The notes under the pieces: model-generated
What the model saw: the letters and a program-made list of their open reading frames with translations, nothing else
The model's database searches: none
Told to the model about the DNA's origin: nothing
Position numbers and translations under genes: made by a program
Source: Deltaproteobacteria bacterium
GTDB taxonomy: Bacteria; Desulfobacterota; Syntrophia; Syntrophales; UBA8958
DNA: 64,000 bases
Assembly (NCBI GenBank): GCA_026388335.1
Contig: JAPLJZ010000236.1
Span: forward strand, 9,295 to 73,294
Reading direction: 5' to 3'
Shown here: piece after piece, positions 2 through 38,153 of the stretch
How positions within the stretch are numbered: the stretch's first letter is position 1
Layout: the number at the start of each line of letters is the position of its first letter

Positions 2-703
2 CTGGACCTGGACCGGCAATATATGCGAGAAGCGCCCAACGATCCCCAGGCTATCAATGCCTATGTCAATGTGCTGATCTCCGCCAAACGTCTCGATGAG
101 GCGGTAGACACGGTGCAAAAAAGTATCAAGAAGCAGCCGCGGGAATGGTCGTTGCATTATTTATTGGGCGATCTTTATCTCCTGAAAAATGATTTCAAAT
201 CGGCGGCTGCAAGCTATGCAATCGCTTTGGCATTGAATCCCGGCGATATTCCTATGGCGCTCAATGTGGGCGCCCGTTACGAGAAGAATGCCTCTGATGG
301 GGAAACGGAGAAATATTACCTTGAAATCAGAAAAAAATATCCCGATGAACCCTTGATCGCCAATCAACTGGCGTGGTTATATATTGAGCGAATGGAGACG
401 CCTCAGAAGGCCAAGGAGCTGGTTGAATTTTTAATGGCAGACAAAGAACGACCGGAGGTGAAGGATACCATCGGCTGGTATTATTACAAGTTGGGTAATT
501 ATGTTGCGGCGGAAAACTATTTCCGAGAGGCCTTGCAATTGGCGCCGGATCAATATAGTACTCGGGCGCGATTGGCGTTGACGCTGTTTTCCCTAAAGAA
601 GAATCAGGAAGCGGAGGGAGAGGCGAAAAAGGTCGTCGCCCTGCTGGCGCCGAGTCCATTGAAAATCAAACTGGAACAAGCCATGACCAAAGGAAAAATA
701 TAG
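2..703 (+). CDS. TPR-repeat protein, C-terminal part (5' end outside the window)
   Basis: The frame of ORF 23..703 stays open back to nt 2, so the ATG at 23 is probably internal. The translation is a run of TPR-like 34-residue units (e.g. YAIALALNPGD, FREALQLAPDQ). It lies next to PEP-CTERM and exosortase genes, which fits a PrsT-like TPR protein (inference). Confidence 0.7.
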   Translation: MDLDRQYMREAPNDPQAINAYVNVLISAKRLDEAVDTVQKSIKKQPREWSLHYLLGDLYLLKNDFKSAAASYAIALALNPGDIPMALNVGARYEKNASDGETEKYYLEIRKKYPDEPLIANQLAWLYIERMETPQKAKELVEFLMADKERPEVKDTIGWYYYKLGNYVAAENYFREALQLAPDQYSTRARLALTLFSLKKNQEAEGEAKKVVALLAPSPLKIKLEQAMTKGKI

Positions 704-9332: not shown

Positions 9333-9785
9333 ATGACTGTCTTATTTCTCTGCACCGCCAATATCGTCAGGAGTTTCATGGCAGAGAGGATATTGAAGGG
9401 AAGATTGGCAAAGATCAAGAGAAGCGATGTGGCCGTTTGTTCCGCCGGAATGATCGACATGCAGGGCGCTGACGGCGATCCGGCAGCGATAAAAATGCTG
9501 GCGGAACACGGATATGATAGTCTTTCCCATGTTTCCAGATTAATCTCGGAAGGGATGCTGGGGGAAGCAGACTGGATTGTGGTGATGGAAAGCGCTCATC
9601 GTCAACAGCTTATCGGCGACTATCCTCAATATGAGGGAAAGATTCGCCTCCTGAAATCCTTTGCCAGAGATTACGATGGCGTCAACCAGGACATACGTGA
9701 CCCGTACCGGCAGTCGGTTTATAATTATCGACTCTGTTTTTCAGAAATTTACATGGCCATTGACGGAATGATGAAATGTATTTAG
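9333..9785 (+). CDS. Low-molecular-weight protein-tyrosine phosphatase
   Basis: 150 aa. N-terminal CX5R(S) P-loop (LFLCTANIVRSFMAE) and a C-terminal DP motif (DIRDPY). This is the expected partner of the Wzc-type tyrosine kinase at 19266. Confidence 0.8.
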   Translation: MTVLFLCTANIVRSFMAERILKGRLAKIKRSDVAVCSAGMIDMQGADGDPAAIKMLAEHGYDSLSHVSRLISEGMLGEADWIVVMESAHRQQLIGDYPQYEGKIRLLKSFARDYDGVNQDIRDPYRQSVYNYRLCFSEIYMAIDGMMKCI

Positions 9786-10570
9786 ATTATTGGAAAATCA
9801 ACAAGTATCCCTTTGAGAACGTCCCCGATCCGGACTTCATGTACTATTCTCCGGAACACGAAGAAGCCCTTGTCCGCCTGCTGTATGCCGTCAAAAGGAT
9901 GAAGGGCGCCGCGCTCCTGACCGGTGAAATCGGCAGCGGGAAAACAACCTTAAGCAGGGTCTTCATTCAACAGCTTCCCGAGAAGGAATTTGACATCGGT
10001 CTCATCACGAATCCCTCCCTGAACGCCCTGGATTTCATCAAAGAGGTTCATTACCAATTGGGGCTCGATTCCGATTCCAATTCCAAAACCGATCTGCTCG
10101 TTATTCTCAATAACCACTTGCTGGACAACATGAACAATGGAAGGAGCACCCTGTTGATTATTGACGAGGCCCAGCTCATTTTCGGTGAGACGTTTGAGGA
10201 GATCCGTCTCTTGTTGAACTTCCAGATGAACGACCGGTTCCTGATGACTTTCCTCCTCATTGGCCAGCCGGAATTGCGAGATATGATTCGCGAATATAAA
10301 CAGCTTGATCAACGCATCGCCATCAGGTATCACCTCAATCCGCTGACGAAGTCAGAAACGGCCAATTACATCCGTTTCCGCCTGAGCAAGACAGGTTGTG
10401 AGCGTGAGCTATTTACGGAAAAGGCTTATGATGCCATTTATCAATATTCCGGGGGTATACCACGGAAGATAAACAATGTTTGTGACTTATCGCTGTTGAT
10501 CGGCTTCAGCCTGAAATTCCAGGAAATTGATGAGCCACTGATTTTAAAGGTTGTCAGAGATTCCCTATAG
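9776..10570 (+). CDS. ExeA-like AAA ATPase (PEP-CTERM/exosortase-locus secretion ATPase type)
   Basis: 264 aa. N-terminus MYLDYWKINKYPFENVPDPDFMYYSPEHEEAL, Walker A GEIGSGKTT, Walker B LLIIDEAQ. Overlaps the phosphatase gene by 10 nt. Confidence 0.8.
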   Translation: MYLDYWKINKYPFENVPDPDFMYYSPEHEEALVRLLYAVKRMKGAALLTGEIGSGKTTLSRVFIQQLPEKEFDIGLITNPSLNALDFIKEVHYQLGLDSDSNSKTDLLVILNNHLLDNMNNGRSTLLIIDEAQLIFGETFEEIRLLLNFQMNDRFLMTFLLIGQPELRDMIREYKQLDQRIAIRYHLNPLTKSETANYIRFRLSKTGCERELFTEKAYDAIYQYSGGIPRKINNVCDLSLLIGFSLKFQEIDEPLILKVVRDSL

Positions 10571-10616
10571 TCTTTTCAGATTGACAGTCTCTCCCCCGCA
10601 ATCTATAATCCCCAAC

Positions 10617-10904
10617 ATGAACGAACATAATAAAAAGGGCGTGATTGCCAATCCCATGGTAATACTTCGGGAAGAATTCGACGACCGGGCAATCCTGTTC
10701 GATCCGGAAACGGGAAATACTTTCGGCGTCAACCCGATCGGCGTCCTCGTCTGGAAACACCTCGACGGTCGTCATTCCATTGATGATATTGCCGTAATTG
10801 TCTTCGAAAAGGCCGATGCGGTTCCTTCCGATGTGACCACTCACATCGAGAATTTTCTACAGGTCGCAGTCGATCTCGGGCTGGCCGGCTACGGGGTTAA
10901 ATAA
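10617..10904 (+). CDS. PqqD-family protein (RiPP recognition element-like), copy 1
   Basis: The likely start is ATG 10617 (MNEHNKKG...); the ORF is open from 10551. PqqD-type core: ILFDPETGNTFGVNPIGVLVWKHLDGRHSIDDIAVIV. Ends 8 nt before the radical SAM gene. Confidence 0.75.
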   Translation: MNEHNKKGVIANPMVILREEFDDRAILFDPETGNTFGVNPIGVLVWKHLDGRHSIDDIAVIVFEKADAVPSDVTTHIENFLQVAVDLGLAGYGVK

Positions 10905-10911
10905 GGATCTT

Positions 10912-12018
10912 ATGACTACGTCAGTGATGAAAACACCCCGCAATGTTGATATCGAGATTACAAGTTTTTGTAATCTCCGCTGTGCCTACTGCAGTCATTT
11001 TTCCGGCCCGGGAGATGTAAAAGAGGACCTCCCGCTGGAATCCTGGCTTCAGTTTTTCGCCGAATTGGGTCGCTGCAACACTATGAAAATAACCCTTTCC
11101 GGAGGGGAACCCTTCAGCCGCCCGGACCTCCGGGCCATTATTCAGGCTATCGTGGCCAATCGCATGCGTTTCACCATTCTCAGCAACGGCACCCTCATCG
11201 ATAATGAAATGGCCGCTTTCCTGTCCGCAACCGGTCGCTGCGATCTCGTGCAGGTCTCCATCGACGGGGCCATTGATACTACCCACGACGCCTTTCGGGG
11301 GGAAGGTAACTTTATGAAGGCAATTCATGGTATCCATGCCCTGCAGGCCAACCATTTGCCCGTATCGGTCCGCGTTACCATCCACCGGAAAAATGTTCGC
11401 GAACTTGACGCCATTGCCGGATTTCTCCTGGAGGACCTTGGCCTGCCGTCTTTTTCTACCAATTCGGCCTCTCACATGGGATTATGCCGGAAAAACGCCG
11501 CCCAAACGCAACTTACCGTTGACGAGCACTCACTGGCCATGGAAACCCTGCTTGCCCTTACGGCCAGGTATAAAGGACGGATTAATGCATCGGCCGGCCC
11601 ACTGGCGGATGCGCAGTTCTGGCTGGAGATGGAAAATTCCCGGCGGGAAAACCGGGAACGACCAGCGGGTCGCGGATTTCTTACGGGATGCAGCGGTCCC
11701 ATGCAGACCATTGCTGTCCGCGCTGACGGCGTCATTGTCCCCTGCTCACAGTTGTGCCATCTGAGCCTGGGCCGGATCAACCAGGATGATCTTGGCGAGA
11801 TCTGGCGGCACCATCCGGAGCTGCAAAGCCTGAGGAAGCGCTCCCGGTTATCACTTGAGGATTTTCCCTTTTGCCGGGATTGCCCCTATACCTCCTATTG
11901 TACCGGTAACTGTCCGGCAATTGCCTATAGCCTCACCGGCGAAATTGATCATCCCTCTCCCGATGCCTGTCTCCGGCAATTCTTAACACAGGGCGGCCGA
12001 CTTCCGGAGGTAGCGTAA
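10912..12018 (+). CDS. Radical SAM/SPASM-domain peptide-maturase-like enzyme, copy 1
   Basis: 368 aa. CX3CX2C cluster (FCNLRCAYCSH), SAM-binding GGEP (LSGGEPF), and a C-terminal Cys-rich SPASM region (GCSGPMQTIAVRADGVIVPC ... FCRDCPYTSYCTGNCPA). Confidence 0.9.
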   Translation: MTTSVMKTPRNVDIEITSFCNLRCAYCSHFSGPGDVKEDLPLESWLQFFAELGRCNTMKITLSGGEPFSRPDLRAIIQAIVANRMRFTILSNGTLIDNEMAAFLSATGRCDLVQVSIDGAIDTTHDAFRGEGNFMKAIHGIHALQANHLPVSVRVTIHRKNVRELDAIAGFLLEDLGLPSFSTNSASHMGLCRKNAAQTQLTVDEHSLAMETLLALTARYKGRINASAGPLADAQFWLEMENSRRENRERPAGRGFLTGCSGPMQTIAVRADGVIVPCSQLCHLSLGRINQDDLGEIWRHHPELQSLRKRSRLSLEDFPFCRDCPYTSYCTGNCPAIAYSLTGEIDHPSPDACLRQFLTQGGRLPEVA

Positions 12019-12119
12019 ATTTTAGGTTAGGGGTTATAAACATCTTGACCTGCAAATCGCCATAAGGTATCGTTTCAATGTATAGATGTCATGGATTCGT
12101 TATGAAAGGAGGGGCAACT

Positions 12120-12518
12120 ATGGACATCCAGAGAAGGTCTCTTTTCAAGATTGCGGCGGGAGGGGCGCTGCTCGTCACGGGCGGTTCTTTCTTAGCGAAG
12201 GAAAACAGTTTTATGTGGAACCTGTGGCATCAGCTTCGTTATCGCGTCACGATTAATGCGGCGCCGGCGAGAAATCCAGACATTATATCTAAAAGACAAG
12301 GTCAGGAAACGGTTCTTTATTCCCAGTCACAGCAGACGGATCTCCTTAAGCTCAATCCCATGGCCGGGCGCATCTGGGAGATGTGTGACGGCTCACACCG
12401 GGTGGGTGATATGATTCGCAGCATCGGCAATCGTTTTGATGTCGTGACCTCCGAATGCACCCGGGATGTCCTGTTCACCGTTGCAAACCTCCAGCAGCGA
12501 GGATTGCTCCGCATCTAA
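12120..12518 (+). CDS. PqqD-family protein with N-terminal twin-arginine (Tat)-type signal, copy 2
   Basis: ATG 12120 lies 5-6 nt after AAAGGAGGGG (12105-12114). N-terminus MDIQRRSLFKIAAGGALLVTGGSFLAKE (RR-x-L-F-K plus a hydrophobic region). The C-terminal half is PqqD-like: LLKLNPMAGRIWEMCDGSHRVGDMIRSIGNRF. Confidence 0.7.
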   Translation: MDIQRRSLFKIAAGGALLVTGGSFLAKENSFMWNLWHQLRYRVTINAAPARNPDIISKRQGQETVLYSQSQQTDLLKLNPMAGRIWEMCDGSHRVGDMIRSIGNRFDVVTSECTRDVLFTVANLQQRGLLRI

Positions 12519-12529
12519 AGGGAGGATAT

Positions 12530-12913
12530 ATGGAAGGGGACTTTAAATCGAGATTCAAACTTCCCTATGAGCCGCCGCAGATCTTTGACCTCTGGACCTC
12601 AACGGCCCATGCCCAGGATGCGGCGGCCAAGCAGTGTAAAACCGGCTCCTCGGTAAGTAAGCAATGCATGACCGGTGGTTCCCCGGGGCAACAGTGCATG
12701 TCCGGAGGGACGGCATACGGCGGTAAATGCCAAAGCGGCAGCGTAGCTACGGGAGAATGCGACCACGGGAGTTCAGCCCAATCGGGAAAATGCCAGTCAG
12801 GAAGCGTCCCTACGGGACAATGCAGGTCAGGAAGCGCCGCAGCAGGCGGGAAGTGTGACTCAGGCAGCGCCGCTGGAGGTGGTTGCACGTCAGGCAGTGC
12901 AGGGAAAAACTAA
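12530..12913 (+). CDS. Candidate RiPP precursor: 127-aa peptide with 33-aa leader and nine Cys-x-[ST]-G-[SG] repeats
   Basis: ATG 12530 lies 4 nt after GGAGG (12521-12525) and 11 nt after the upstream stop. Cys residues sit at positions 36, 46, 56, 67, 77, 88, 98, 109 and 119. The core is Gly/Ser/Ala-rich with no signal peptide. It is the last gene of the PqqD/rSAM operon. The longer ORF start at 12455 overlaps the upstream gene and lacks an RBS. Confidence 0.65.
   Translation: MEGDFKSRFKLPYEPPQIFDLWTSTAHAQDAAAKQCKTGSSVSKQCMTGGSPGQQCMSGGTAYGGKCQSGSVATGECDHGSSAQSGKCQSGSVPTGQCRSGSAAAGGKCDSGSAAGGGCTSGSAGKN
12629..12910 (+). repeat. In-frame tandem coding repeats (nine 30-33-nt Cys-centred units; last 189 nt = three 63-nt super-repeats)
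   Basis: The periodicity is visible in both the DNA and the protein. For example, aaatgccaaagcggcagcgtagctacggga (12725-) compares with aaatgccagtcaggaagcgtccctacggga (12788-). The 21-aa units are GKCQSGSVATGECDHGSSAQS / GKCQSGSVPTGQCRSGSAAAG / GKCDSGSAAGGGCTSGSAGKN. Confidence 0.8.
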
Positions 12914-12916
12914 TTA

Positions 12917-12940
12917 GTGGGGCATAACCCCGTTTTATTT
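12917..12940 (+). terminator. Weak hairpin + T-rich tract after the precursor gene
   Basis: GGGG(12919-12922)-CATAA-CCCC(12928-12931) is followed by GTTTTATTT. The stem is only 4 GC pairs (6 with wobbles). The T-tract overlaps the stop of the convergent gene at 12935. Confidence 0.3.
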
Positions 12941-13855
12941 CGCCACGACAAGCTCCCAGAAACCGGGATCCTTCCGGAAAAACAGATCATAGGCCGCAGT
13001 CATTTCACAAACGTCACGGCAAAGATAAAAGGCCTGCCTCTTCAAGGGTTCCCCCATCACCTCAAAACAATGAAGGTGCTCCTTTAATAATTCCGTGAAG
13101 GCGTTTCGCTGCTCCCGAGACTGAATGGAGGTCATTGCCGACTGATGGAGAAAGAGCAATTTGTCCAGTTTTTCCTGCTGCAGGTACAACCGTTTGGGGG
13201 ACGGTTGGTCGCCCCCCACCTGCCTGAACGGGGTGGCATGGATATGACAGGCATCTCCGGCGTCTTCGATTACTGTTGCATCATCGGATAAGACAATATC
13301 GCCGGAAGACAAGGCGGCGACAGTTGATTTACCTGTCCCCGAGGTTCCAAGAAACAGGTATCCTCCCCTTCCCTTTCTCTTTTTGATGCCTGCGCCATGA
13401 ACCATGAGCCTGCCTCTGTTTACCATCACCAGGCAGGTAAAGACAAAAAGCAGCTTCAGCAGGGTCCCCACGAAATGGTTCGCCTCATCTGAGCAGAAAA
13501 TGTAGATCAATCCCCGGTTGGTACGATCATCAAAGATTAGGCAACCGTTCAAAAATCCAATGGCTTCAGAATAATTCTTCAGGGAAGAAAAGGTGATTTT
13601 GTCAATCCGGGCAAAGATCGCTTCGTTTATATTGGAATCTTCGCGGCGGATGAGATGGGGTTCACTGTCAAAGCGTTGCAGGTAAGTTAGTTCATGATCG
13701 AAATGGACAAGACAGACGGCGTCAGGGGTTTTTTTTTTGCTGATCAGAAAACCCGACAACAGGCCCGGTAGTTCGTCGAAGAGATATTCCGCCGCCGCTC
13801 CGTGGGAAATAAAGTCAAAGTTGACCCCGGCAATCGAAAACCACGCTTCCTTCAT
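12935..13855 (-). CDS. HPr-kinase-like P-loop protein (putative peptide Ser kinase)
   Basis: 306 aa. ...LMVHGAGIKKRKGRGGYLFLGTSGTGKSTVAAL...IVLSDDATVI matches the HPr kinase/phosphorylase C-terminal catalytic core (H-x-x-x-V, GxSGxGKS, LxxDD). The start overlaps the HD-GYP stop (ATGA). Confidence 0.65.
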   Translation of the reverse strand: MKEAWFSIAGVNFDFISHGAAAEYLFDELPGLLSGFLISKKKTPDAVCLVHFDHELTYLQRFDSEPHLIRREDSNINEAIFARIDKITFSSLKNYSEAIGFLNGCLIFDDRTNRGLIYIFCSDEANHFVGTLLKLLFVFTCLVMVNRGRLMVHGAGIKKRKGRGGYLFLGTSGTGKSTVAALSSGDIVLSDDATVIEDAGDACHIHATPFRQVGGDQPSPKRLYLQQEKLDKLLFLHQSAMTSIQSREQRNAFTELLKEHLHCFEVMGEPLKRQAFYLCRDVCEMTAAYDLFFRKDPGFWELVVAK

Positions 13856-15093
13856 GAAGCGGGCAGGTCCTCGACGGAGACACTGTCTTCAATATTCAAC
13901 ACCGGATGACTCCGCAGGTCGACCATTCGGGGCGGATCCAATTTTATCCCCTTTTCGTCAAAGATCAGATTGACCACCGGCTTCATCGGATTAGTCTTGT
14001 TCGTCGCGACAACCCGGCCGATATTACGGTTATTCAGCCGGACATAACTGCCGATAGGATACATGGAGATCTCATCTAAAAACATCTTGGTGATCCGGGG
14101 TTCAAATAGATTTGCCCTGGAACCAATCAGTTCCTTGATCGAGTCGGACTGCAATAGGGGCTTCTTATGGGGGCGGTGATGGGTCATGGCCTCATAGGAA
14201 TCACAAATGCCGATAATCTGGGCATAGTCGCATATTTCGTCTCCCTTCAGCCCCCGGGGATAGCCCTGCCCATTTGCCCGCTCCTGGTGTTCATAGACGG
14301 CCCTGATCATCTTCGGGTATCTCGCCGCAAAAGGCGCCATTATCTCAACCGCGAATTCCGGATGACTCTTGATAAGATCCATTTCACTATCTGACGGTCT
14401 CCCCGCCTTGTTCAAGATATTATCCGGGATCCTGAACATTCCGATATCATGAAGCAGGGCCGCCAGTCCGAATTCGATGAGTTTCGATTCTGAGTATCCC
14501 ATCCGTTGGGCAACCTTCAATCCATAAACCAGGGTATTGATAGGAGAAGAAAGATAATAATCGTCTTCCTGTTCATAATCCACGGTCAACTGGTAGATTT
14601 GCGATGTCATATCGTGGGAGGAATGGAGGACATTATTTATATAGATCAGCGCCGGTTCAAGCTGAAAGGACTCCCCTTTTCTGACCTGGTTACGGACGTG
14701 ACCCATATATTGTTTCGCCGCCACATAAATCATTCTTATTCTGTCATCTTCACCCGGCTCTTCCGTAGCTTCCGCAATTGGTTGATCATCCTGCCTCTCT
14801 GAAGGCGTTTGCGTCGCTGTCGCCATTGGCAATTCAGGGGCGGCCGTCTCTATCGCCAGCGATGCTTGCGTGGTTTCGATAACATTCGTCTCCTCGATCT
14901 CGATATCAATGGGGATCTCTTGCTGATTTCCAGATTTCAGTTTAAGAATGTCAATTTCACTCAACCGTAAAGACAGGCGTGCTTCTGCCAGAGCTGCCTC
15001 GTCAGTCTCCGTCTGTTCTGCCGATTCGTCCTGCGGTTCAACATTCGTGAGACTCTTTTTTTTACCCATAACAAGATCGTAAGCACGTGCCAT
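13852..15093 (-). CDS. HD-GYP domain protein (c-di-GMP phosphodiesterase type) with acidic low-complexity N-terminus
   Basis: 413 aa. LLHDIGMF (HD) and EHQERANGQGYPRGL (HD-GYP signature). The N-terminal ~130 aa is rich in E/T/A/D. Confidence 0.85.
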   Translation of the reverse strand: MARAYDLVMGKKKSLTNVEPQDESAEQTETDEAALAEARLSLRLSEIDILKLKSGNQQEIPIDIEIEETNVIETTQASLAIETAAPELPMATATQTPSERQDDQPIAEATEEPGEDDRIRMIYVAAKQYMGHVRNQVRKGESFQLEPALIYINNVLHSSHDMTSQIYQLTVDYEQEDDYYLSSPINTLVYGLKVAQRMGYSESKLIEFGLAALLHDIGMFRIPDNILNKAGRPSDSEMDLIKSHPEFAVEIMAPFAARYPKMIRAVYEHQERANGQGYPRGLKGDEICDYAQIIGICDSYEAMTHHRPHKKPLLQSDSIKELIGSRANLFEPRITKMFLDEISMYPIGSYVRLNNRNIGRVVATNKTNPMKPVVNLIFDEKGIKLDPPRMVDLRSHPVLNIEDSVSVEDLPAS

Positions 15094-15113: not shown

Positions 15114-16193
15114 TTAATTATAGATGCGCGAGGCTGGAAACAGGTTTTTCTCGTAAGCCTCGTCACACATAAAAAAAGAGCTTCTCAGATCACCGGAAGC
15201 GGCATAGGCACAGGCCCGGCAGGAACCGAGGCAACGAAATTTAAATATGCACCGTCCGCAGATCCCGCTGAGTTGCGAAGGCGTTTCTTTTCTTAGCTTT
15301 TGCAGCAGCGGATGATGACGCCAGATTTCCGTTAGATCATCCTTCGCGATGTTTCCCATATTAAGGTCCGTTTCCGTCTGCCCGATCCCGCATAAAGATA
15401 CCGTACCATCGGCAAGAATTCCTAAAATATTGAGGATATGGCATTCGTACAGAGGATTGCCGGTGACGGCATGCAGGGATTTCAACCCGATGGGCATACA
15501 GAAGTAAATCTCCGTTTTATATTTACTGCCGAGTTCCGCTTCGATCCAGCGATCAATTCTGATCAGTTCTTCAATATCCACGTTTTCCCGGCGCTGAAAG
15601 ACCTTTTCCCCACGGCCCGTGGGCATGACGGGATTGATCTTGAAGGAGGGAACCTCAAGATCGTCGCAGAGGGCCGCCAGAGCTTCAATCTCCGGAATGT
15701 TTTCCTCATAGAGGCTCATAATGACCTGGGTGTTTATCTTCTCAGCCCGCAGGTAATGCAGGGCGGCAACGGATTTCTCATGACAACCCTTTATTCCCCG
15801 GAGCTTGTCATGCTGCGCCGCCTGCGCACCGTCCAGACTGACAGATACCTGGCGGACCTCACATTCTTTGATGACCCTTGCCATATCATTGTCAATCATG
15901 GTCCCATTCGATTCGATATCGATGCAGAGACCTTCTCCGTGGAGATATCTCATCAGTTCGACAATATCCTTGCGGAGAAACGGTTCACCTCCGGTAAGTT
16001 TGACTGTCCCCAAGCCCAACTCTTTCGCCGCAGCAATGGTTCTCGTAAGGACGGACAGTTCCATCACCTGCTCATCTCCATCCTCCGGAGCAGGGGGGGA
16101 CACCCAGCAGTGCCTGCACCTGAGATTGCAACGCTCGGAAAGGTACAAATACAGGCTCGTCAGGGGAAATTCATCAGGAACCATGGCTCTCAC
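15114..16193 (-). CDS. Radical SAM/SPASM-domain peptide-maturase-like enzyme, copy 2
   Basis: 359 aa from GTG 16193 (alternative ATG 16184). CX3CX2C (RCNLRCRHC), LTGGEPF, and SPASM Cys clusters (ECHILNILGILADGTVSLC ... ICGRCIFKFRCLGSCRACA). Shares strings with copy 1 (EIWRHHPLLQKLRK versus EIWRHHPELQSLRK). Confidence 0.9.
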   Translation of the reverse strand: MRAMVPDEFPLTSLYLYLSERCNLRCRHCWVSPPAPEDGDEQVMELSVLTRTIAAAKELGLGTVKLTGGEPFLRKDIVELMRYLHGEGLCIDIESNGTMIDNDMARVIKECEVRQVSVSLDGAQAAQHDKLRGIKGCHEKSVAALHYLRAEKINTQVIMSLYEENIPEIEALAALCDDLEVPSFKINPVMPTGRGEKVFQRRENVDIEELIRIDRWIEAELGSKYKTEIYFCMPIGLKSLHAVTGNPLYECHILNILGILADGTVSLCGIGQTETDLNMGNIAKDDLTEIWRHHPLLQKLRKETPSQLSGICGRCIFKFRCLGSCRACAYAASGDLRSSFFMCDEAYEKNLFPASRIYN

Positions 16194-16485
16194 ATTTTGT
16201 CAAAAACTGCATTGCCGCCAGGTTTTCAAAAAAAAGTTTCGTATCTGCTGCTATTTTCTCAACGGCCATTTCGGGATAGAATTCCATCAAAAGAGTGATG
16301 ATATCGCCCACTGTTTTCCGGCCGTCGCACAGTTCATAGATATTGACGCCGTTGGCATTCAGGTACTTCAGATTGCCGGTATGGGGGTCAAAAAGGAAGG
16401 CCCCCTCTTCCTCTTTTCTGAAGACCATCTCCTGATTCGGTTTCAGGCAATCTTCCCTGGTGACAATTTTCGTACCATCAGGCAT
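16174..16485 (-). CDS. PqqD-family protein, copy 3
   Basis: The preferred start is ATG 16485 (MPDGTKIV...), preceded by GAGAGGTG; the ORF is open to 16524/16527. Core: FLFDPHTGNLKYLNANGVNIYELCDGRKTVGDIITLL. The 3' end overlaps the downstream rSAM start. Confidence 0.75.
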   Translation of the reverse strand: MPDGTKIVTREDCLKPNQEMVFRKEEEGAFLFDPHTGNLKYLNANGVNIYELCDGRKTVGDIITLLMEFYPEMAVEKIAADTKLFFENLAAMQFLTKCESHGS

Positions 16486-16596
16486 AATACTACACCTCTC
16501 AGCTCTAACTACTTCTTTTTTCATCAAGAATCAATAATGAATTTTAAAATATTTAGTTCCTTTTTTTCCCCGCCCCTGTTATCGTATCCTTCAATG
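16486..16596. promoter_or_regulatory. AT-rich probable divergent promoter region
   Basis: This region is visibly AT-rich (tcaagaatcaataatgaattttaaaatatttagttcctttttttcc). It lies between the best-supported start of the minus-strand PqqD gene and the second candidate start of the plus-strand nucleotidyltransferase-like gene. No specific boxes assigned. Confidence 0.3.
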
Positions 16597-17775
16597 CATG
16601 CAACCATCGATCATGCCCTCTTTTCGCTGATCAACCATCAGCCGACGCCATGTCTCCCGGAAGTTCTGGCTTCCCCGGAATTATTTCCCTACCTTGAGAT
16701 GAACGGCGTCGCCGGAGTGCTGTTTTACCACCTCCAAAGAGCGGGTCTCCAACAGCTCGCCCCTCCGGACTGTTATGAAGCCCTTCATGACCGTTTCCAT
16801 TTCCAGATCAGAAGAAATATGGCGTGTGCGGCCGCGGCAAAGATAGTTTTTCGCCTGTTGCACACGGCAGGCATCCCTTTCCTGGTCTTGAAGGGCATCG
16901 CCCTTGCCGAACATGTTTATCCCCACTTTGCCATGCGCACCACCTCGGACCTGGATATTCTGATCCGCAAAGACGACCTGTTGCGCGCCGATCTGGCCCT
17001 GACGCAAGCCGGTTATCAATCCTGGGACAGCACCCCCCAACAGGCGCTGCTCAATCCCCCGGGTTATCTTGCCAGCCTCGAATACCACAAACCGGGGATA
17101 GCCTTCGCCTACATCCATCTCCACTGGCATCTTGTCAATACCTCAACCCCCGCCACTGCCTTCATTAATCAAGTGGATATGGAGCGAATATGGGAGAAAT
17201 CCGTCGTTGCGAAAGTGGCTGCTACGGAAGTCCGTCTCCTCTGTCCGGAGCATCTCATCATCTATCTTTGTGAGCATGCCTTGCGGGTCGGCCATTCCTT
17301 TGACCGCCTCATCCTCGTCTGCGATATTCTCTATGCCGTCAAAACTTATAAGGCCCACCTTGACTGGAATAACGTGGCCACGGAGGCGAAAGCCTTGGGC
17401 CTGCTGAATTTTGCCTATCTTGGTCTGAAGATTGTTCAGTTCTATGGGGGGCAGGAATTCTTGATTAATGACGTATTAAAGAAACTTGCCCCCCCTTCCC
17501 TCTCCCGGACGGAGCGTCTCTTTCTTTCCCTTCAGGAAAACCATTACCGTATGCGCGGGAGCAGCTATCTCGTCTATCTGGCCCTGAGCAAGGGGCCAGT
17601 AAATAAGATGAGCCTGATCCTGCGCACCATTTTTCCACCCCGCCCCATTCTCGCCCAGCGGGGGCGATGTAAATTGCATACACAGACAAATACTTTGTAT
17701 TTTCATAGAATTCGTGAAATAACGTCCCATCTTTACAAAATGTTGAAGCTTTGTTATCGGACAATTTATCCATAG
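16537..17775 (+). CDS. NTP_transf_5-like (uncharacterised nucleotidyltransferase family) protein
   Basis: Start at ATG 16537 or 16597. The 656-aa ORF from 15805 is antisense to two good genes upstream of this point. Family recognised from ...NGVAGVLFYHLQRAGL...IPFLVLKGIALAEHVYPHFAMRTTSDLDILIRKDDLLRADLALTQAGYQ (from memory; needs an HMM check). Confidence 0.6.
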   Translation: MNFKIFSSFFSPPLLSYPSMHATIDHALFSLINHQPTPCLPEVLASPELFPYLEMNGVAGVLFYHLQRAGLQQLAPPDCYEALHDRFHFQIRRNMACAAAAKIVFRLLHTAGIPFLVLKGIALAEHVYPHFAMRTTSDLDILIRKDDLLRADLALTQAGYQSWDSTPQQALLNPPGYLASLEYHKPGIAFAYIHLHWHLVNTSTPATAFINQVDMERIWEKSVVAKVAATEVRLLCPEHLIIYLCEHALRVGHSFDRLILVCDILYAVKTYKAHLDWNNVATEAKALGLLNFAYLGLKIVQFYGGQEFLINDVLKKLAPPSLSRTERLFLSLQENHYRMRGSSYLVYLALSKGPVNKMSLILRTIFPPRPILAQRGRCKLHTQTNTLYFHRIREITSHLYKMLKLCYRTIYP

Positions 17776-30208: not shown

Positions 30209-32089
30209 ATGTGCGGCATAGCAGGCATATTCAATCTGAACGGTGAGCCCGTCTCCCCGGTCTTTCTCCGGCGGATGACCGACGCCATCTCCCACCGAGG
30301 ACCGGACGGTGAGGGCTTTTATACTGATAGCTTCATCGGCCTTGGCCACCGCAGACTGGCGATCATAGACCTGTCGCCGGCCGGCCACCAGCCGATGGCG
30401 ACGACACAAAACCAGCATGTCATCACCTACAATGGCGAGGTCTATAACTTCCAGGAACTGCGCACGGAGTTGGAAGCGCTGGGCCACCAGTTCCGCTCCC
30501 GTTCGGATACGGAAGTCGTTCTTTACGCCTACAAGGAATGGGGCGCCAAGTGCCTTGAAAAATTCAACGGCCACTTTGCCTTCGTCATCTGGGACAAGAC
30601 AAAGCAGGAGCTGTTCCTCGCCAGGGACCGTTACGGCACAAAACCTCTCTACTACACCTTTGCCGGCCCATATTTTATTTTCGCCTCCGAACAGAAGGCG
30701 ATCGTCATCCACCCGGCAGTGAAGAGAGAAATCGACCTGGAAGCTCTCCTCGAATACTTCACCTTCCAGAACCTCTTTACCGACAAGACCTTGTTCAAAG
30801 GCATCCGGCTCTTCCCCGCCGGTACTTACGCCCACCTCACCCTGGCTGCAGGGAGTCACGAGTTGCGAACAACGCGCTACTGGTCCTGGTATTTCTCGGA
30901 GCCGGAAAATCCGCTAAGTAAAAAGGAATACGTCGAAGAACTGGATCGCCTCTTCCGCCAGGCCGTGAACCGTCAGCTCATCAGCGACGTGGACGTGGGG
31001 GCCTATCTCAGCGGCGGCATGGACTCCGGCTCCATCACCGCTATCGCCGCAAAGCAGCTTACCTACATGAAGACCTTCACCTGCGGTTTTGATCTCCATT
31101 CCGCCTCAGGGCTTGAACTGGGCTTCGACGAGCGGGAAAAAGCGGAATACATGTCCTACCTCTTCAAAACGGAGCATTACGAGATGGTCCTGAAGGCCGG
31201 AGACATGGAGCGCATCCTCCCAAAACTGGCCTGGCATCTCGAAGAGCCCCGCGTCGGCCAGAGCTACCCGAACTATTACGCAGCCCAGTTAGCCTCCAAA
31301 TTCGTCAAGGTCGTTCTCTCCGGCGGGGGGGGCGACGAGCTTTTCGGCGGTTATCCCTGGCGTTATTATCGGGCCGTGGATCCCACCGACAATTTCGAGC
31401 AGTACATTGATAAATATTACGCTTACTGGCAGCGCATGGTTTCCAATACGACCATCAAAAAATTATTCCGGCCTGTGTGGAATGAAGTGAAGAACGTCTG
31501 GACTCGCGACATCTTTCGGGACGTCTTCTTGAAACATGACCATAACCTGAACCGACCCGAAGACTATATCAACCATTCCCTTGCTTTTGAAGCTCGGACG
31601 TTTCTTCATGGCCTGCTCATCGTGGAAGATAAGCTGAGCATGGCCCACGGGCTGGAAACGCGTATGCCGTTTCTGGACAACGATCTGGTGGATTTTGCCC
31701 TGAAAATACCCGTTAATCTAAAGCTGAGGAATCTGACGGAGGCAGCCGGTATCAACGAAAACGAACCGGGTTCAAAAACGGAGAAATATTTCCGGAAGAC
31801 CAACGACGGCAAGCTGATCCTGCGCACCGTCATGGAGCGATATATTCCCCAAGACATCACAAATGCCACAAAACAGGGCTTTTCTGCACCAGACGCCTCC
31901 TGGTTCAAGGGGGATAGCATCGAATTTGTAAAGAACACTTTTTTTAAGCGCAATGCCCACATTTATGAATGGATGGATCGATCAGCCATTGAAGCATTGA
32001 TTGAGGATCATTTGAGCGGAACGCAGAACAGACGGCTGCTCATTTGGTCTTTTCTCAATATTGAAGAATGGCTAAAATCCAATATCTAA
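30209..32089 (+). CDS. Asparagine synthase (glutamine-hydrolysing)-family amidotransferase, copy 1
   Basis: 626 aa. N-terminal nucleophile MCGIAGIF, HRGPDG, YNGEVYN, and the PP-loop SGGMDSGS. Confidence 0.9.
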   Translation: MCGIAGIFNLNGEPVSPVFLRRMTDAISHRGPDGEGFYTDSFIGLGHRRLAIIDLSPAGHQPMATTQNQHVITYNGEVYNFQELRTELEALGHQFRSRSDTEVVLYAYKEWGAKCLEKFNGHFAFVIWDKTKQELFLARDRYGTKPLYYTFAGPYFIFASEQKAIVIHPAVKREIDLEALLEYFTFQNLFTDKTLFKGIRLFPAGTYAHLTLAAGSHELRTTRYWSWYFSEPENPLSKKEYVEELDRLFRQAVNRQLISDVDVGAYLSGGMDSGSITAIAAKQLTYMKTFTCGFDLHSASGLELGFDEREKAEYMSYLFKTEHYEMVLKAGDMERILPKLAWHLEEPRVGQSYPNYYAAQLASKFVKVVLSGGGGDELFGGYPWRYYRAVDPTDNFEQYIDKYYAYWQRMVSNTTIKKLFRPVWNEVKNVWTRDIFRDVFLKHDHNLNRPEDYINHSLAFEARTFLHGLLIVEDKLSMAHGLETRMPFLDNDLVDFALKIPVNLKLRNLTEAAGINENEPGSKTEKYFRKTNDGKLILRTVMERYIPQDITNATKQGFSAPDASWFKGDSIEFVKNTFFKRNAHIYEWMDRSAIEALIEDHLSGTQNRRLLIWSFLNIEEWLKSNI

Positions 32090-36636: not shown

Positions 36637-38103
36637 TTGTTGAAATTTCTTAAACAGCTTGCCTCAGAGAGTCTTGTATACGGACTTGCTGGGATCGCTT
36701 CCCGGTTCCTCTCCATATTTCTCGTTCCCATCTATACGCGTATATTTTCGCCCGAAGATTACGGCGTCATGAGCCTGGTGACCACCACGATGAGTCTGGT
36801 CGGCATATTCGTGATCCTGGCCCTGGATTCAGCCGCCGGGCGCTGGTATTGGGACACGAAAGACGAAAACGACCGGAAAACGACCTTATCCTCATGGTTT
36901 TGGTGTCAACTGGTCGTTGCCTCGTCATTCTGCGCCATCACACTCATTTTTTCTTCTGAGCTGAGCCACTGGATTGTCAAGGATGGGAGAGCGGCCATTT
37001 ATTTCCAGATATCGGCCTTTGCCCTGCCCATCGGACTCATCGGTTTTGTCACGTCAACCTGGCTGAGAATGCAGCGACGGCCTTGGGCGACAACCTTCTA
37101 CGCCTTGGGCGTTAATATCTTCAACATTGTTATGACCCTCATCCTGGTGGTTTTTCTCCGCTGGGGACTCTTGGGTATTTTCTACGCCCAACTGTTCTCA
37201 GCGATCGTAGGGGGAGGCATCGCCATATTTCTCATGCGCGATTGGATTCATCCCCGTTATCTTAGATTTTCTCGTCTTTCCGACATGATAAAATACGCCA
37301 TGCCTTTGATTCCCGCCTCGTTGGCTTTCTGGATCGTTAATTCATGTGACCGATATTTTATCCAAAATTACAGTTCAACAGCCGAGGTAGGGCTATATCA
37401 GGTGGGCAGTTCCATTGCCTGGGGCATTGCCCTGTTCACCGGCGCCTTCCAGCAGGCCTGGGGTCCATTTTCTCTGTCCATCCATAAACGAGACGACGCC
37501 AAAGAAGTTTATGCCCATGTTTTGTTGGCTTATCTATGGGTGACCTGTGTCGGCGTATCCCTGCTTGCCATGTTCGGATCGGAAGTGATCATGATCTTCG
37601 CCACCCAACGTTATCTGGGGGCAAATTCCGTCATTGGCCTGTTGTCCCTAAGTTATGTGATGATCGGCCTCGGCTTTATCGCATCGGTCGGACCCACCAT
37701 TATGAAGACGACAGCCCCGACGGGCTTCGGCGTGACGATGGCCGCTATCCTGAATATCCTTTTTAATTTTCTCTTGGTTCCCCTCTGGGGGAAAACAGGC
37801 TCCGCCGTTGCGACACTCGTGAGCCAAGCCATGATGCCGATCTACCTCTTTTACCGTTCCCAGCAGATGTATCCCATTCCCTATCGGTTTCGACCGGCTA
37901 CTATCATCTTCATCACAGCCATAATCTATATTATCGTCGGCGCTCTATGGCAGGTTCATCACTTGGACCCTACCGTTATCGTCACAAAATTGCTTTTAGT
38001 ATCTTTATTTGTTCCCGTCGCCTTCATGGCCCGCATCATTACACCGGACCAGGCAAGAAAGCTCTTGAGTTCGATTCCCGGTATGCGGAAAGAGCCCGTT
38101 TAA
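36637..38103 (+). CDS. Wzx-type oligosaccharide flippase (MOP/polysaccharide biosynthesis protein family)
   Basis: About 12-14 TM segments. N-terminus LLKFLKQLASESLVYGLAGIASRFLSIFLVPIYTRIFSPEDYGV is typical of the family. The likely start is TTG at 36637/36640, after GGCGGAGAGAA. The ATG at 36550 would overlap the upstream gene by 38 nt. Confidence 0.7.
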   Translation: MLKFLKQLASESLVYGLAGIASRFLSIFLVPIYTRIFSPEDYGVMSLVTTTMSLVGIFVILALDSAAGRWYWDTKDENDRKTTLSSWFWCQLVVASSFCAITLIFSSELSHWIVKDGRAAIYFQISAFALPIGLIGFVTSTWLRMQRRPWATTFYALGVNIFNIVMTLILVVFLRWGLLGIFYAQLFSAIVGGGIAIFLMRDWIHPRYLRFSRLSDMIKYAMPLIPASLAFWIVNSCDRYFIQNYSSTAEVGLYQVGSSIAWGIALFTGAFQQAWGPFSLSIHKRDDAKEVYAHVLLAYLWVTCVGVSLLAMFGSEVIMIFATQRYLGANSVIGLLSLSYVMIGLGFIASVGPTIMKTTAPTGFGVTMAAILNILFNFLLVPLWGKTGSAVATLVSQAMMPIYLFYRSQQMYPIPYRFRPATIIFITAIIYIIVGALWQVHHLDPTVIVTKLLLVSLFVPVAFMARIITPDQARKLLSSIPGMRKEPV

Positions 38104-38153
38104 ATTCAAATATTCTATCATCATCCCCGCCTCGGAAATCAGGATCAAACCTT

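Follow-up and report, generated by a model that had tools for sequence, protein, structure and literature searches.

The 127-residue peptide encoded at 12530–12913 in the stretch of Syntrophales DNA analysed here (64,000 nucleotides, hereafter the window) is probably the precursor (A) peptide of a variant SynChlorMet (SCM) radical-SAM cassette from Syntrophales, and probably matures along the lines proposed below. The SCM system is reportedly Haft's; to our knowledge the cassette exists solely as database models. A literature search found no experimental study of ScmA or of the SCM cassette. That the frame encodes a leader-guided, multi-site RiPP precursor, with a leader and a core served by radical SAM/SPASM and PqqD proteins, had been proposed in a preliminary description of the locus and is very probable, given conserved synteny, tandem paralogues and coding-type substitutions. 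The same description saw in it an unrecognised class. Here we differ: the neighbouring ScmD and ScmE proteins exceed their NCBIfam cut-offs, and the peptide itself is a sub-threshold relative of ScmA. The features of the locus are listed in Table 1.

Table 1. Features of the peptide gene and of the surrounding cassette (positions in the window)
Feature	Position	Strand	Basis or remark
LMW phosphotyrosine phosphatase	9333–9785	+	conserved upstream neighbour
AAA_22 / PEP-CTERM-type ATPase	9776–10570	+	conserved upstream neighbour
ScmD, PqqD-type recognition protein paired with ScmE	10617–10904	+	TIGR04248, 105.1 bits (cut-off 100), scored on 10551–10904
ScmE radical SAM/SPASM enzyme	10912–12018	+	TIGR04250, 571.8 bits (cut-off 400)
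PqqD-family protein with N-terminal twin-arginine (Tat-type) signal MDIQRRSLFKIAAGG..., 132 aa	12120–12518	+	Pfam PqqD, 9.4e-13
Ribosome-binding site GGAGG	12521–12525	+	4 nt 5' of ATG 12530, read directly
Putative ScmA-type precursor peptide gene	12530–12913	+	127 aa plus stop, by translation
Leader, residues 1–28	12530–12613	+	YxxPx[IL] motif, ends at invariant A26-H-A28
KLPYEPPQI, RRE-binding-type YxxPx[IL] motif in leader	12557–12583	+	
A26-H-A28, leader end	12605–12613	+	invariant in alignment A1
Core, residues 29–127	12614–12910	+	brief spacer of variable sequence, followed by nine C-x-x-G-x-x-[A/P/G/V] units
Cys codon starts in core	12635, 12665, 12695, 12728, 12758, 12791, 12821, 12854, 12884	+	
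Terminator-like hairpin	12916–12934	+	consensus scan, pattern match only
ScmC-family protein, PEPCK/HprK-like P-loop phosphotransferase fold	12935–13855	-	PF27840 via P0157; AF2 and Foldseek
HD-GYP domain protein	13852–15093	-	HD_5, 8.8e-26; HD and GYP motifs readable
ScmF-like second radical SAM/SPASM enzyme	15114–16193	-	TIGR04251 best match, 333.5 bits (under cut-off 400)
Third PqqD-family protein, paired with ScmF-like gene	16174–16527	-	PqqD/ScmD-type NCBIfam matches
PF14907 (NTP_transf_5) nucleotidyltransferase	16537–17775	+	Pfam, 8.5e-46

Coding status and layout of the peptide gene

On comparative evidence the frame can be taken as a genuine, conserved coding gene, a conclusion drawn from third-position substitutions, from its being the only frame that is always open, and from the ribosome-binding site and the terminator-like hairpin that flank it. 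Against the homologue at locus L003, substitutions at the three codon positions number 11, 8 and 38, and the codon changes are 32 synonymous and 13 non-synonymous. The sense frame alone is open across all seven close homologues compared. These figures bear on the suspicion, already voiced in the preliminary description, that the frame might be an untranslated by-product of G+C-rich repetitive DNA. The antisense frame 12565–12888 is indeed open in the window, the G+C content of the gene is 59% against 48% for the window, automatic gene callers missed the gene in two assemblies and the exact protein was not found among a collection of 15 billion proteins. However, the antisense frame does not stay open in L003 and L004, the other frames are likewise interrupted in homologues, and the leader and unit architecture is common to 263 related protein clusters; together with the third-position bias and the low identity of the DNA repeats (see below), this comparative evidence has effectively refuted the by-product reading. 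The absence of the gene from automatic annotation also means that the family is under-counted in genome mining.

Our reading of the sequence agrees with the preliminary description on the ribosome-binding site and on the position of the ATG, 11 nt past the stop of the upstream PqqD gene. An earlier start, ATG 12455 (152 aa), was rejected: it overlaps the PqqD gene, lacks the ribosome-binding site and yields an unconserved extension. The hairpin lies directly 3' of the peptide stop, between the convergent peptide and ScmC genes.

The nine cysteines, re-read in the translation, lie at residues 36, 46, 56, 67, 77, 88, 98, 109 and 119 (spacings 10, 10, 11, 10, 11, 10, 11, 10), with Gly at Cys+3 and Ser/Gly at Cys+4 in all nine units and Ser/Thr at Cys+2 in eight, the exception being C77-D-H-G. 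When the core was shuffled 200,000 times, no shuffle reached 8/8 spacings of 10–11 (maximum six) or Gly+3 in 9/9 units (maximum eight), so the regularity of both is more than chance. The 10- and 11-residue units differ mainly by one additional linker Gly; it is a speculative idea that they might represent two substrate types for the two radical-SAM enzymes.

Three 21-residue super-repeats had been described in the last 63 residues, visible also in the DNA. They stand at the protein level, where 11–14 of 21 residues are identical, but are weak in the DNA, where the 63-nt blocks are 52–60% identical. Tandem Repeats Finder reported nothing at 12400–13000, and a DNA repeat search recovered only pieces of 24–39 nt at 67–88% identity. 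A recent DNA-repeat origin was rejected on the block identity and these short, diverged pieces. Given so faint a trace in the DNA, the periodicity is kept at the protein level.

The leader was originally thought to end at residue 33, and the family alignment moves this boundary to A26-H-A28. Its likeness to YxxP-type leaders, on the other hand, is borne out: YEPPQI fits the [Y/W]xxPx[L/V/I/A/F/Y] motif of discrete lasso RREs (PMC13381572). The peptide has no signal peptide and no match in Pfam, and Rfam gave no match in the window. Its AF2 model is disordered (pLDDT 38, from a shallow MSA), as would be expected for a precursor; because the MSA is shallow, the lack of a solenoid or repeat fold is weak evidence.

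The peptide family and its SCM neighbourhood

Homologous frames beside related maturases, for which the preliminary description had proposed a search, were found, and synteny is kept in 17 of the 24 loci surveyed. The peptide has 11 close homologues, and relatives are encoded at 22 genome loci, all in Syntrophales-type MAGs. A profile search of 1.84 billion representatives returned the 263 related clusters (E < 1e-3), whose shared architecture is a YxxPx[LIV] leader followed by C-x-x-G-x-x-[A/P] units; a second protein search with the broad alignment A2 added little.

In the leader, P12, Y13, E14, P15 and P16 are invariant in alignment A1, as are A26 and A28. More widely, Y..P.[LIVM] is present in 127 of 148 superfamily members, and of 27 leaders, 23 have A-x-A at Y+13..15, with the other four at most one residue off. 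The unit positions conserved across relatives are Cys, Gly+3 (227/227 units across the family) and Ala/Pro+6 (90% of the same 227), whereas Ser/Thr+2 and Ser/Gly+4 reflect a mere preference for small residues and the linkers between units are the most variable positions. Unit spacing is 10 or 11 in 190 of 200 cases. Since most superfamily members have 5–6 units, the nine seen here are unusually many. Tandem paralogue pairs, with a conserved leader and a variable core, occur at six loci. One relative bears a C-terminal sorting-type domain (FlgD_ig / Por_Secre_tail), and some family members are orphans that lie far from any maturase (L001, L016, L020, L022, L023 and L035).

The peptide gene probably belongs to the computationally defined SynChlorMet cassette, represented here by a long, nine-repeat Syntrophales form. 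The models that define the cassette, with their cut-offs in bits, are ScmA TIGR04252 (35), ScmC TIGR04249 (125) and PF27840, ScmD TIGR04248 (100), ScmE TIGR04250 (400) and ScmF TIGR04251 (400). Against ScmA the peptide itself scores 20.3 bits (E 4.7e-4), over residues 28–64 only. We nevertheless regard it as an ScmA homologue because 29 of 92 members of its profile family match TIGR04252 and one of them, P0068, passes the cut-off with 36.5 bits. P0068 has the same YE[PK]P leader and CxxG units as the peptide and sits in an ScmE–ScmA–ScmC array whose ScmE scores 634 bits.

Among the neighbours, ScmD and ScmE clear their cut-offs; the other two proteins match ScmF and ScmC better than any other family, in both cases below the NCBIfam cut-off. 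ScmE has readable CX3CX2C and CX2CX5CX3C motifs, and its nearest solved relatives are SkfB, PqqE and CteB. The ScmC-family protein scores 24.9 bits against TIGR04249. PF27840 is a precomputed match, marked weak, on P0157, a public protein of identical sequence. Neither the single sequence nor a profile drew more than non-significant PEPCK/HprK P-loop matches from PDB chains, so that a fold search was needed: the AF2 model (pLDDT 90.5) has ATP-PEPCK as its top Foldseek matches (E 1.3e-9), and GxSGxGKST and LSDD are invariant. The Tat-signal PqqD protein has lasso_PqqD_Bac among its NCBIfam matches, and an [RK]-R-x-[FL] motif with a hydrophobic stretch behind it is conserved in its orthologues. 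For the third PqqD gene, the Pfam PqqD match is on its counterpart in L031.

The arrangement of these genes is itself conserved. In 15 loci the Tat-PqqD gene immediately precedes the peptide gene, in 14 the peptide gene and ScmC converge, and the remaining cassette parts are retained together despite rearrangements. Of the 24 loci surveyed, 13 have both radical-SAM genes and 16 at least one. The HD-GYP gene, which overlaps the ScmC start by 4 nt, is found at most loci, and the PF14907 nucleotidyltransferase is conserved beside the cassette. So too is the position of the cassette inside an exosortase/EPS locus, to which the upstream phosphatase and ATPase genes link it.

Set against the SCM system as modelled, the locus differs in several respects. 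The peptide, the ScmF-like enzyme and (by NCBIfam) ScmC are all sub-threshold; A-x-A closes the leader, and the unit number exceeds the usual 5–6. There are two additional PqqD proteins, one with the Tat signal, as well as the nucleotidyltransferase, the HD-GYP protein and the conserved place within the exosortase/EPS locus.

Proposed maturation and rival readings

In the maturation that we propose, leader capture would fall to the PqqD proteins, one for each radical-SAM enzyme, as is suggested by the fusion of ScmD to ScmE in relative L002. ScmE and the ScmF-like enzyme would act on the invariant Cys of every unit, most likely to give one intra-unit thioether or other Cys-based crosslink, and hence a string of small rings. 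The partner of the Cys could be a backbone or small-residue carbon, for example at Gly+3 or Ala/Pro+6; this is a guess, because no acceptor with a reactive side chain is conserved. Kinship with SkfB and CteB makes ScmE a candidate thioether-forming enzyme, PqqE also being among its nearest solved relatives. ScmC would phosphorylate a Ser/Thr, and the nucleotidyltransferase may elaborate the phosphate, as in paeninodin-type lasso peptides and linear polyphosphorylated peptides (LPPs). The case for phosphorylation in every unit is weakened because Ser/Thr at +2 and +4 is unconserved in the family. A type I signal peptidase would remove the leader at A-x-A and the Tat-signal PqqD protein may carry the bound peptide across the membrane, such Tat hitch-hiking being a purely inferential step. 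The product would finally be associated with the exopolysaccharide that the surrounding locus produces. By analogy, a Cys crosslink in each unit plus phosphorylation is probably the chemistry of the product.

It is somewhat unlikely, but worth weighing, that the defining maturation is instead LPP-like, consisting of RRE-guided (poly)phosphorylation by ScmC, elaboration by the PF14907 protein and a signal-peptidase-I cut, with the radical-SAM enzymes being accessory or catalysing something other than thioether formation (such as epimerisation, C–C or C–O crosslinks or Cys conversion). The LPP system has been validated experimentally, with its RRE, HprK-like kinase, NTP transferase, signal-peptidase-I-like peptidase, polysaccharide locus and YxxP leader, and the next-best families for ScmE and ScmF include the non-thioether enzymes WgkB, PqqE, AhbD and NirJ. 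Moreover, locus L029 keeps a PqqD gene, the peptide and an ScmC–signal-peptidase fusion with no radical-SAM gene within 10 kb, so the radical-SAM step may not define the superfamily. However, Cys is the sole absolutely conserved side chain in each unit, which fits sulfur chemistry, and thioether synthases are among the nearest solved relatives of ScmE; the frequency with which radical-SAM genes accompany the peptide and the lack of a conserved Ser near the core start or end comparable to the LPP Ser3 also count against the LPP-like reading.

A more far-reaching version of the crosslinking scheme, unlikely as a whole, makes the mature product a component of the exopolysaccharide matrix and not an antibiotic. 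Two RRE-guided radical-SAM enzymes would turn the nine units into as many small Cys-linked rings, and the leader-bound Tat-signal PqqD protein would be an RRE serving as a Tat 'hitch-hiker' carrier out of the cytoplasm. Cleavage of the leader at the invariant A-x-A would fall to a housekeeping signal peptidase I. The core, phosphorylated or nucleotidylated, would then be joined to the exosortase-dependent exopolysaccharide or lodged within it, with c-di-GMP (HD-GYP) in control.

The disordered model, the embedding of the gene in an EPS/exosortase locus, the orphan copies and the relative with a sorting-type domain would also suit a peptide that is no enzyme substrate at all: a disordered, Cys-periodic secreted or matrix protein (metal-binding, Fe–S-binding or disulfide-forming) that happens to share the SCM operon. 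This is very unlikely, since the peptide lacks a signal peptide, has an RRE-type leader motif beside three adjoining PqqD proteins and has tandem paralogues of the kind typical of RiPP precursors, and since unrelated contigs also show the canonical ScmE–ScmA–ScmC adjacency. Highly improbable is a multi-core precursor whose 10–11-residue units are each cut out, yielding nine small cyclic peptides or a small cofactor-like molecule (compare PQQ and mycofactocin): every repetitive unit does have one invariant Cys-x-x-Gly, and PqqE-like enzymes and PqqD proteins are characteristic of pathways that make cofactors from peptides, but there is no conserved cleavage motif between units, no protease in the cluster, and unit sequences so different that the products would be heterogeneous.

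Likeness to characterised peptide systems

The closest characterised analogues are the PapA/PapB ranthipeptides and the linear polyphosphorylated peptides described in 2026. PapB installs six thioethers on the six CX3D motifs of PapA (PMC9413430). Ranthipeptides and sactipeptides (freyrasin PapA/PapB, SCIFF/CteB, SkfB) likewise combine a leader-guided radical SAM/SPASM enzyme with a Cys-bearing core, and a radical SAM/SPASM maturase, an RRE and a Cys-containing core are all present here by gene content and motifs. PapA is also alike in its repeated units, having six in-line repeated motifs with one thioether each (PMC9413430). The differences are that CX3D is replaced by C-x-x-G-x-x-[A/P], without a conserved Asp, Glu or Thr acceptor, that the RREs are discrete where those of ranthipeptides are fused, that there are two radical-SAM enzymes and that the thioether is here a predicted one. 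With 90.3 bits the PapB maturase model stays below its cut-off of 340, and there is no match between the peptide and the SCIFF precursor family.

In LPP biosynthesis, a module of HprK-like kinase, NTP transferase and RRE has been validated, LPP clusters also lie in polysaccharide loci (Popov et al. 2026, PMC13381572), and the RRE presents the leader to a signal-peptidase-I-like enzyme (PMC13381572). The clusters as described there list or mention no radical-SAM enzymes (PMC13381572). By fold, domain or motif, the locus described here has in common with them a discrete PqqD-type RRE, a YxxPx[LIV] leader, an HprK/PEPCK-fold kinase and an NTP transferase (uncharacterised in LPPs; here PF14907), together with the polysaccharide-locus setting, and the signal-peptidase-I domain fused to ScmC in the distant relative L029 echoes LppS. 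LPP leaders, by contrast, run on as ...VLxHQxIxFETxxS, and LPPs come from Bacillota, whereas our locus is from Syntrophales and alone has radical-SAM enzymes. The dedicated SipW-like signal peptidase I and MsbA-like exporter of LPPs were not found in the cluster in the window: a tblastn search with the L029 signal-peptidase-I domain gave nothing significant in the window or in the 24 loci L001–L024, and there is no ABC exporter among the cluster genes.

The ScmC–signal-peptidase fusion, the YxxP leader and the polysaccharide setting link SCM to the LPP/paeninodin tailoring module validated in 2026, which suggests one widespread RRE–kinase–transferase chassis that may carry different core chemistries (lasso cyclase or radical SAM). 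The locus is an unusually informative SCM member, in that nine near-identical putative modification sites should make for a strong MS signal per enzyme. The two radical-SAM enzymes have a PqqD partner each and the third PqqD protein carries the Tat signal, and the locus offers a testable export route for a leader-bearing peptide without a signal sequence. It also suggests that the exopolysaccharide and biofilm biology of syntrophic anaerobes may have RiPPs as partners.

With lasso peptides the locus shares the leader motif and the spacing from its Tyr to the putative cleavage site, and the PqqD proteins score against lasso_PqqD models. A lasso peptide reading was nevertheless rejected, as the scanned ORFs include neither a lasso cyclase nor a B2 transglutaminase-like peptidase. 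The core also lacks the ring-forming Asp/Glu architecture. Both Asn-synthase homologues of the window (30209–32089 and 37947–40133) carry strong GATase domains, as in EPS amidotransferases.

The peptide gene and its periodic core

The 127-aa candidate precursor opens at ATG 12530, 11 nt past the stop codon (12518) of the upstream PqqD gene and behind an RBS-type GGAGG at 12521–12525. Its nine cysteines lie at positions 36, 46, 56, 67, 77, 88, 98, 109 and 119, with glycine at Cys+3 in 9/9 units, serine or threonine at +2 in 8/9 and serine or glycine at +4 in 9/9, all as first described. Chance does not come close to explaining this Cys/Gly periodicity: with the core shuffled 200,000 times, 8/8 spacings of 10–11 never appeared, nor did 9/9 glycines at +3. 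The C-terminal 63 residues form three 21-aa super-repeats with 11–14 of 21 residues identical. These had been thought visible in the DNA as well, where they show only weakly: the 63-nt blocks are only 52–60% identical, TRF detected no tandem repeat over the peptide region and a DNA repeat search returned short pieces only (67–88% identity). It is thus the protein sequence that keeps the repeat. AF2 predicts a disordered peptide (pLDDT 38), as would fit a precursor; the prediction speaks against a repeat region that folds on its own.

The pattern of divergence marks the ORF as a real gene. Against the L003 orthologue (a locus in another genome, 90% identical), substitutions at codon positions 1/2/3 number 11/8/38; of the codon changes, 32 are synonymous and 13 are not. 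The caveat that the frame might be a by-product of GC-rich repeats, the antisense frame also being open, loses its force here: the antisense frame, 114 codons in the window, is shortened to 64 in L003 and 49 in a further locus, L004, and no frame other than the sense one stays open in all seven close homologues compared. A terminator-like hairpin (12916–12934) lies past the stop codon. An alternative upstream start, ATG 12455, is disfavoured relative to ATG 12530 by homologue N-termini and the RBS.

Automatic annotation misses this gene. No exact copy of the peptide exists in a 15-billion-protein collection; in two assemblies of the same organism (L031 3921–4338 and L032 3053–3470) the gene is uncalled, leaving a gap between the ScmC and PqqD genes, and close homologues are called with a spurious upstream start (P0001). 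The family is probably under-counted by genome mining. The protein encoded next to the peptide gene matches NTV58_16325 of a 'Deltaproteobacteria bacterium' MAG at 100% identity.

A SynChlorMet cassette in an EPS locus

The gene content of the window (ScmD, ScmE and others, together with polysaccharide genes) identifies the 'SynChlorMet' (SCM) cassette of TIGRFAMs/NCBIfam, set within an EPS locus. The minus-strand cassette genes are convergent with the peptide gene. The flanks encode an exosortase, a PrsT-like TPR protein, a polysaccharide export protein and a Wzc-like kinase, and then come ~40 kb of glycosyltransferase, flippase and sugar-modifying genes.

Genes of the cassette in the window
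Feature	Position	Strand	Evidence
LMW phosphotyrosine phosphatase	9333–9785	+	
AAA_22 / PEP-CTERM-type ATPase	9776–10570	+	
ScmD	10617–10904	+	TIGR04248, 105.1 bits (cut-off 100)
ScmE	10912–12018	+	TIGR04250, 571.8 bits (cut-off 400)
PqqD protein, Tat-type N-terminus MDIQRRSLFK (Tat-PqqD)	12120–12518	+	
Peptide gene	12530–12913	+	translation
ScmC-family protein	12935–13855	-	
HD-GYP protein	13852–15093	-	
ScmF-like radical SAM/SPASM	15114–16193	-	TIGR04251, 333.5 bits (cut-off 400)
Third PqqD protein	16174–16527	-	
PF14907 nucleotidyltransferase	16537–17775	+	

A 12/12 sigma-70-type promoter match (TTGACA-17-TATAAT; 10581–10609, +), a consensus match only, ends 8 nt short of the ScmD ATG; if used, it would give a leaderless or near-leaderless ScmD–ScmE–PqqD–peptide transcript. 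On the other strand, in the operon PqqD3–ScmF-like–HD-GYP–ScmC, the HD-GYP gene and the ScmC start overlap by 4 nt (13852–13855).

A first search found 11 homologues sharing invariant P-Y-E-P-P, A26 and A28 and repeated C-x-x-G, and a genome scan found 22 loci, every one in Syntrophales or 'Deltaproteobacteria' MAGs. In the 27 peptides extracted from these loci (6–12 units each, 227 units) Cys+3 is glycine in 100%, +6 alanine or proline in 90% and +2 serine or threonine in only 58%. Of 200 cysteine spacings, 190 are 10 or 11 residues, neighbouring spacings alternating in 127 pairs as against 30 that do not; the 11-residue units mainly carry one additional linker glycine. Tandem paralogue pairs occur at six loci. 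A profile run against 1.84 billion representative proteins extended the family to 263 clusters with E<1e-3, of which 49 reach E<1e-10; most are 66–110 aa long. Among 148 small members, glycine stands at +3 of 94% of 843 cysteines and 588 spacings are of 10 or 11 residues; five to six units are commonest and only four members have nine. P0050 and P0056 (L034 1253–2050) are ~265 aa long with 20–21 Cys-x-x-Gly units, so that unit number ranges from at least ~3 to 21.

The preliminary description placed the peptide in an unrecognised class, a view that its relatives and the SCM genes alongside overturn. The NCBIfam model of the SCM precursor, ScmA, matches 29/92 family members, and one relative, P0068, passes its cut-off (36.5 vs 35 bits) and sits in an ScmE (634 bits)–ScmA–ScmC array; the window peptide scores 20.3 bits (cut-off 35). 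On these matches we place it inside the ScmA superfamily, as a divergent member with an expanded repeat, and see no new class. One relative, P0023 (L033 148–948), joins an ScmA-like leader and 10 units through a Lys/Asp-rich linker to a C-terminal FlgD_ig/Por_Secre_tail-type sorting domain, which hints at a cell-surface fate in one lineage, although the single short contig could be chimeric.

With window proteins as tblastn queries across 24 loci, the peptide gene proved to lie next to cassette genes in 17, directly 3' of Tat-PqqD in 15 and convergent with ScmC in 14. ScmE, the ScmF-like enzyme, ScmD, the third PqqD, PF14907 and HD-GYP are retained through several rearrangements, as are the AAA_22 ATPase, LMW phosphatase, export protein and Wzc; the HD-GYP gene accompanies the cassette at most of the loci. 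The gene content is the same in L002, a more distant contig, and its ScmD–ScmE fusion (11557–12975, -), a 472-aa PqqD–radical SAM–SPASM protein, supports the view that each radical-SAM enzyme uses its own PqqD recognition partner. An upstream CHASE4-HAMP-PAS sensor, PpsR and an MBL-fold protein are kept in L005 and L006, and also in L004, but with a partial sensor match (residues 276–617). Orphan or tandem-pair copies away from any maturase gene occur at five loci, L001 (9512–9853 and 10001–10351), L016, L020, L022 and L023, two of them beside PAS sensor kinases, and the distant member L035 is likewise an orphan. In Syntrophus sp. SKADARSKE-3 the copies have a large PAS sensor histidine kinase on either side.

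Leader, cleavage and export

The leader segment LPYEPPQI had been likened to a YxxP-type motif, and YEPPQI indeed fits [Y/W]xxPx[L/V/I/A/F/Y], the motif recognised by discrete lasso RREs and likewise present in PQQ and LPP (linear polyphosphorylated peptide) precursors (PMC13381572). Y..P.[LIVM] occurs in 127/148 small members, and the window PqqD proteins score against lasso_PqqD models. We read A-x-A as the leader/core junction, since A-[H/Y/F/Q]-A starts 13 residues past the tyrosine in 23/27 leaders (12 or 14 in the other four) and its distance to the first cysteine varies. L010 (9998–10441) carries an (Asp-Arg)n insertion, DDYDRDRDRDRDWDRDRKK, between the two; the spacer thus tolerates large insertions, consistent with a junction at A-x-A.

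A-x-A is a classic type I signal peptidase site. In L029, another relative, an ScmC–signal-peptidase fusion (10322–11824, +) neighbours genes for a PqqD protein and an ScmA-like peptide, and there is no radical-SAM gene within 10 kb. Independently, the RRE of LPP systems serves to present the leader to a SipW-like peptidase (PMC13381572). The fusion links SCM to this kinase/SipW-like peptidase system, and together they make signal-peptidase-I-type leader removal plausible; tblastn with the L029 signal-peptidase domain gave no significant match in the window or the 24 loci.

Tat-PqqD orthologues (L002, L004–L007, L009–L015, L018, L019, L021 and L028 compared) keep [RK]-R-x-[FL] and then a hydrophobic stretch, with RR in most and KR in L009–L011 and L015. 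RRE-type domains are not usually sent to the Tat pathway. This N-terminus suggests carrier-mediated export of the leader-bearing peptide: it would hitch-hike out with Tat-PqqD, and a housekeeping signal peptidase would then cut the leader.

Likely chemistry and known systems

Both ScmE and the ScmF-like enzyme have CX3CX2C plus a full SPASM CX2CX5CX3C; among solved structures ScmE is closest to SkfB (thioether), PqqE (C–C) and CteB (thioether). Since cysteine is the only invariant side chain per unit, with Gly+3 and Ala/Pro+6 as small-residue or backbone constraints, we favour, by analogy with PapB and the six CX3D motifs of PapA on which it acts (PMC9413430), a single Cys crosslink within each unit to some carbon of the backbone or of a small residue. 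The motif here is not CX3D. A PapA/SCIFF-type precursor was rejected: the units have no conserved Asp or Glu, the PapB model reaches 90.3 bits (cut-off 340) and the peptide gives no SCIFF hit.

ScmC is predicted to be a PEPCK/HprK-type phosphotransferase: its confident model (pLDDT 90.5) matches ATP-dependent PEPCK (E 1.3e-9, TM 0.46–0.53), GxSGxGKST and LSDD are invariant, and weak sequence matches reach HprK and PEPCK. With PF14907 it recalls the way in which paeninodin-type lasso peptides and LPPs are tailored, by a kinase paired with an NTP transferase. The LPP kinase polyphosphorylates one serine (PMC13381572); phosphorylation of every unit is unlikely here and its site not predictable, Ser/Thr at +2 and +4 not being conserved.

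A lasso peptide was rejected because neither a lasso cyclase nor a B2 peptidase was found among the ORFs scanned. In its working the system comes closest to the pathway of a ranthipeptide or sactipeptide to which the LPP/paeninodin tailoring module has been added. SCM membership comes through the ScmE and ScmD genes and the peptide architecture; the scores of the peptide, the ScmF-like enzyme and, by NCBIfam, ScmC stay under the curated cut-offs. The Syntrophales form goes beyond SCM in its Tat-signal PqqD, third PqqD, PF14907 and HD-GYP, in a leader that ends in A-x-A, in having nine or more units and in its conserved place within an EPS/exosortase locus. A search of a literature library found no paper on the SCM cassette, the chemistry of which is thus apparently unstudied; the locus is a good experimental entry point, and the export/matrix link is intriguing. 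Further into the polysaccharide locus, among glycosyltransferases and sugar-modifying enzymes, are encoded a third radical SAM/SPASM protein (40173–41171, +) and one radical SAM protein that binds B12 (51463–52962, +).
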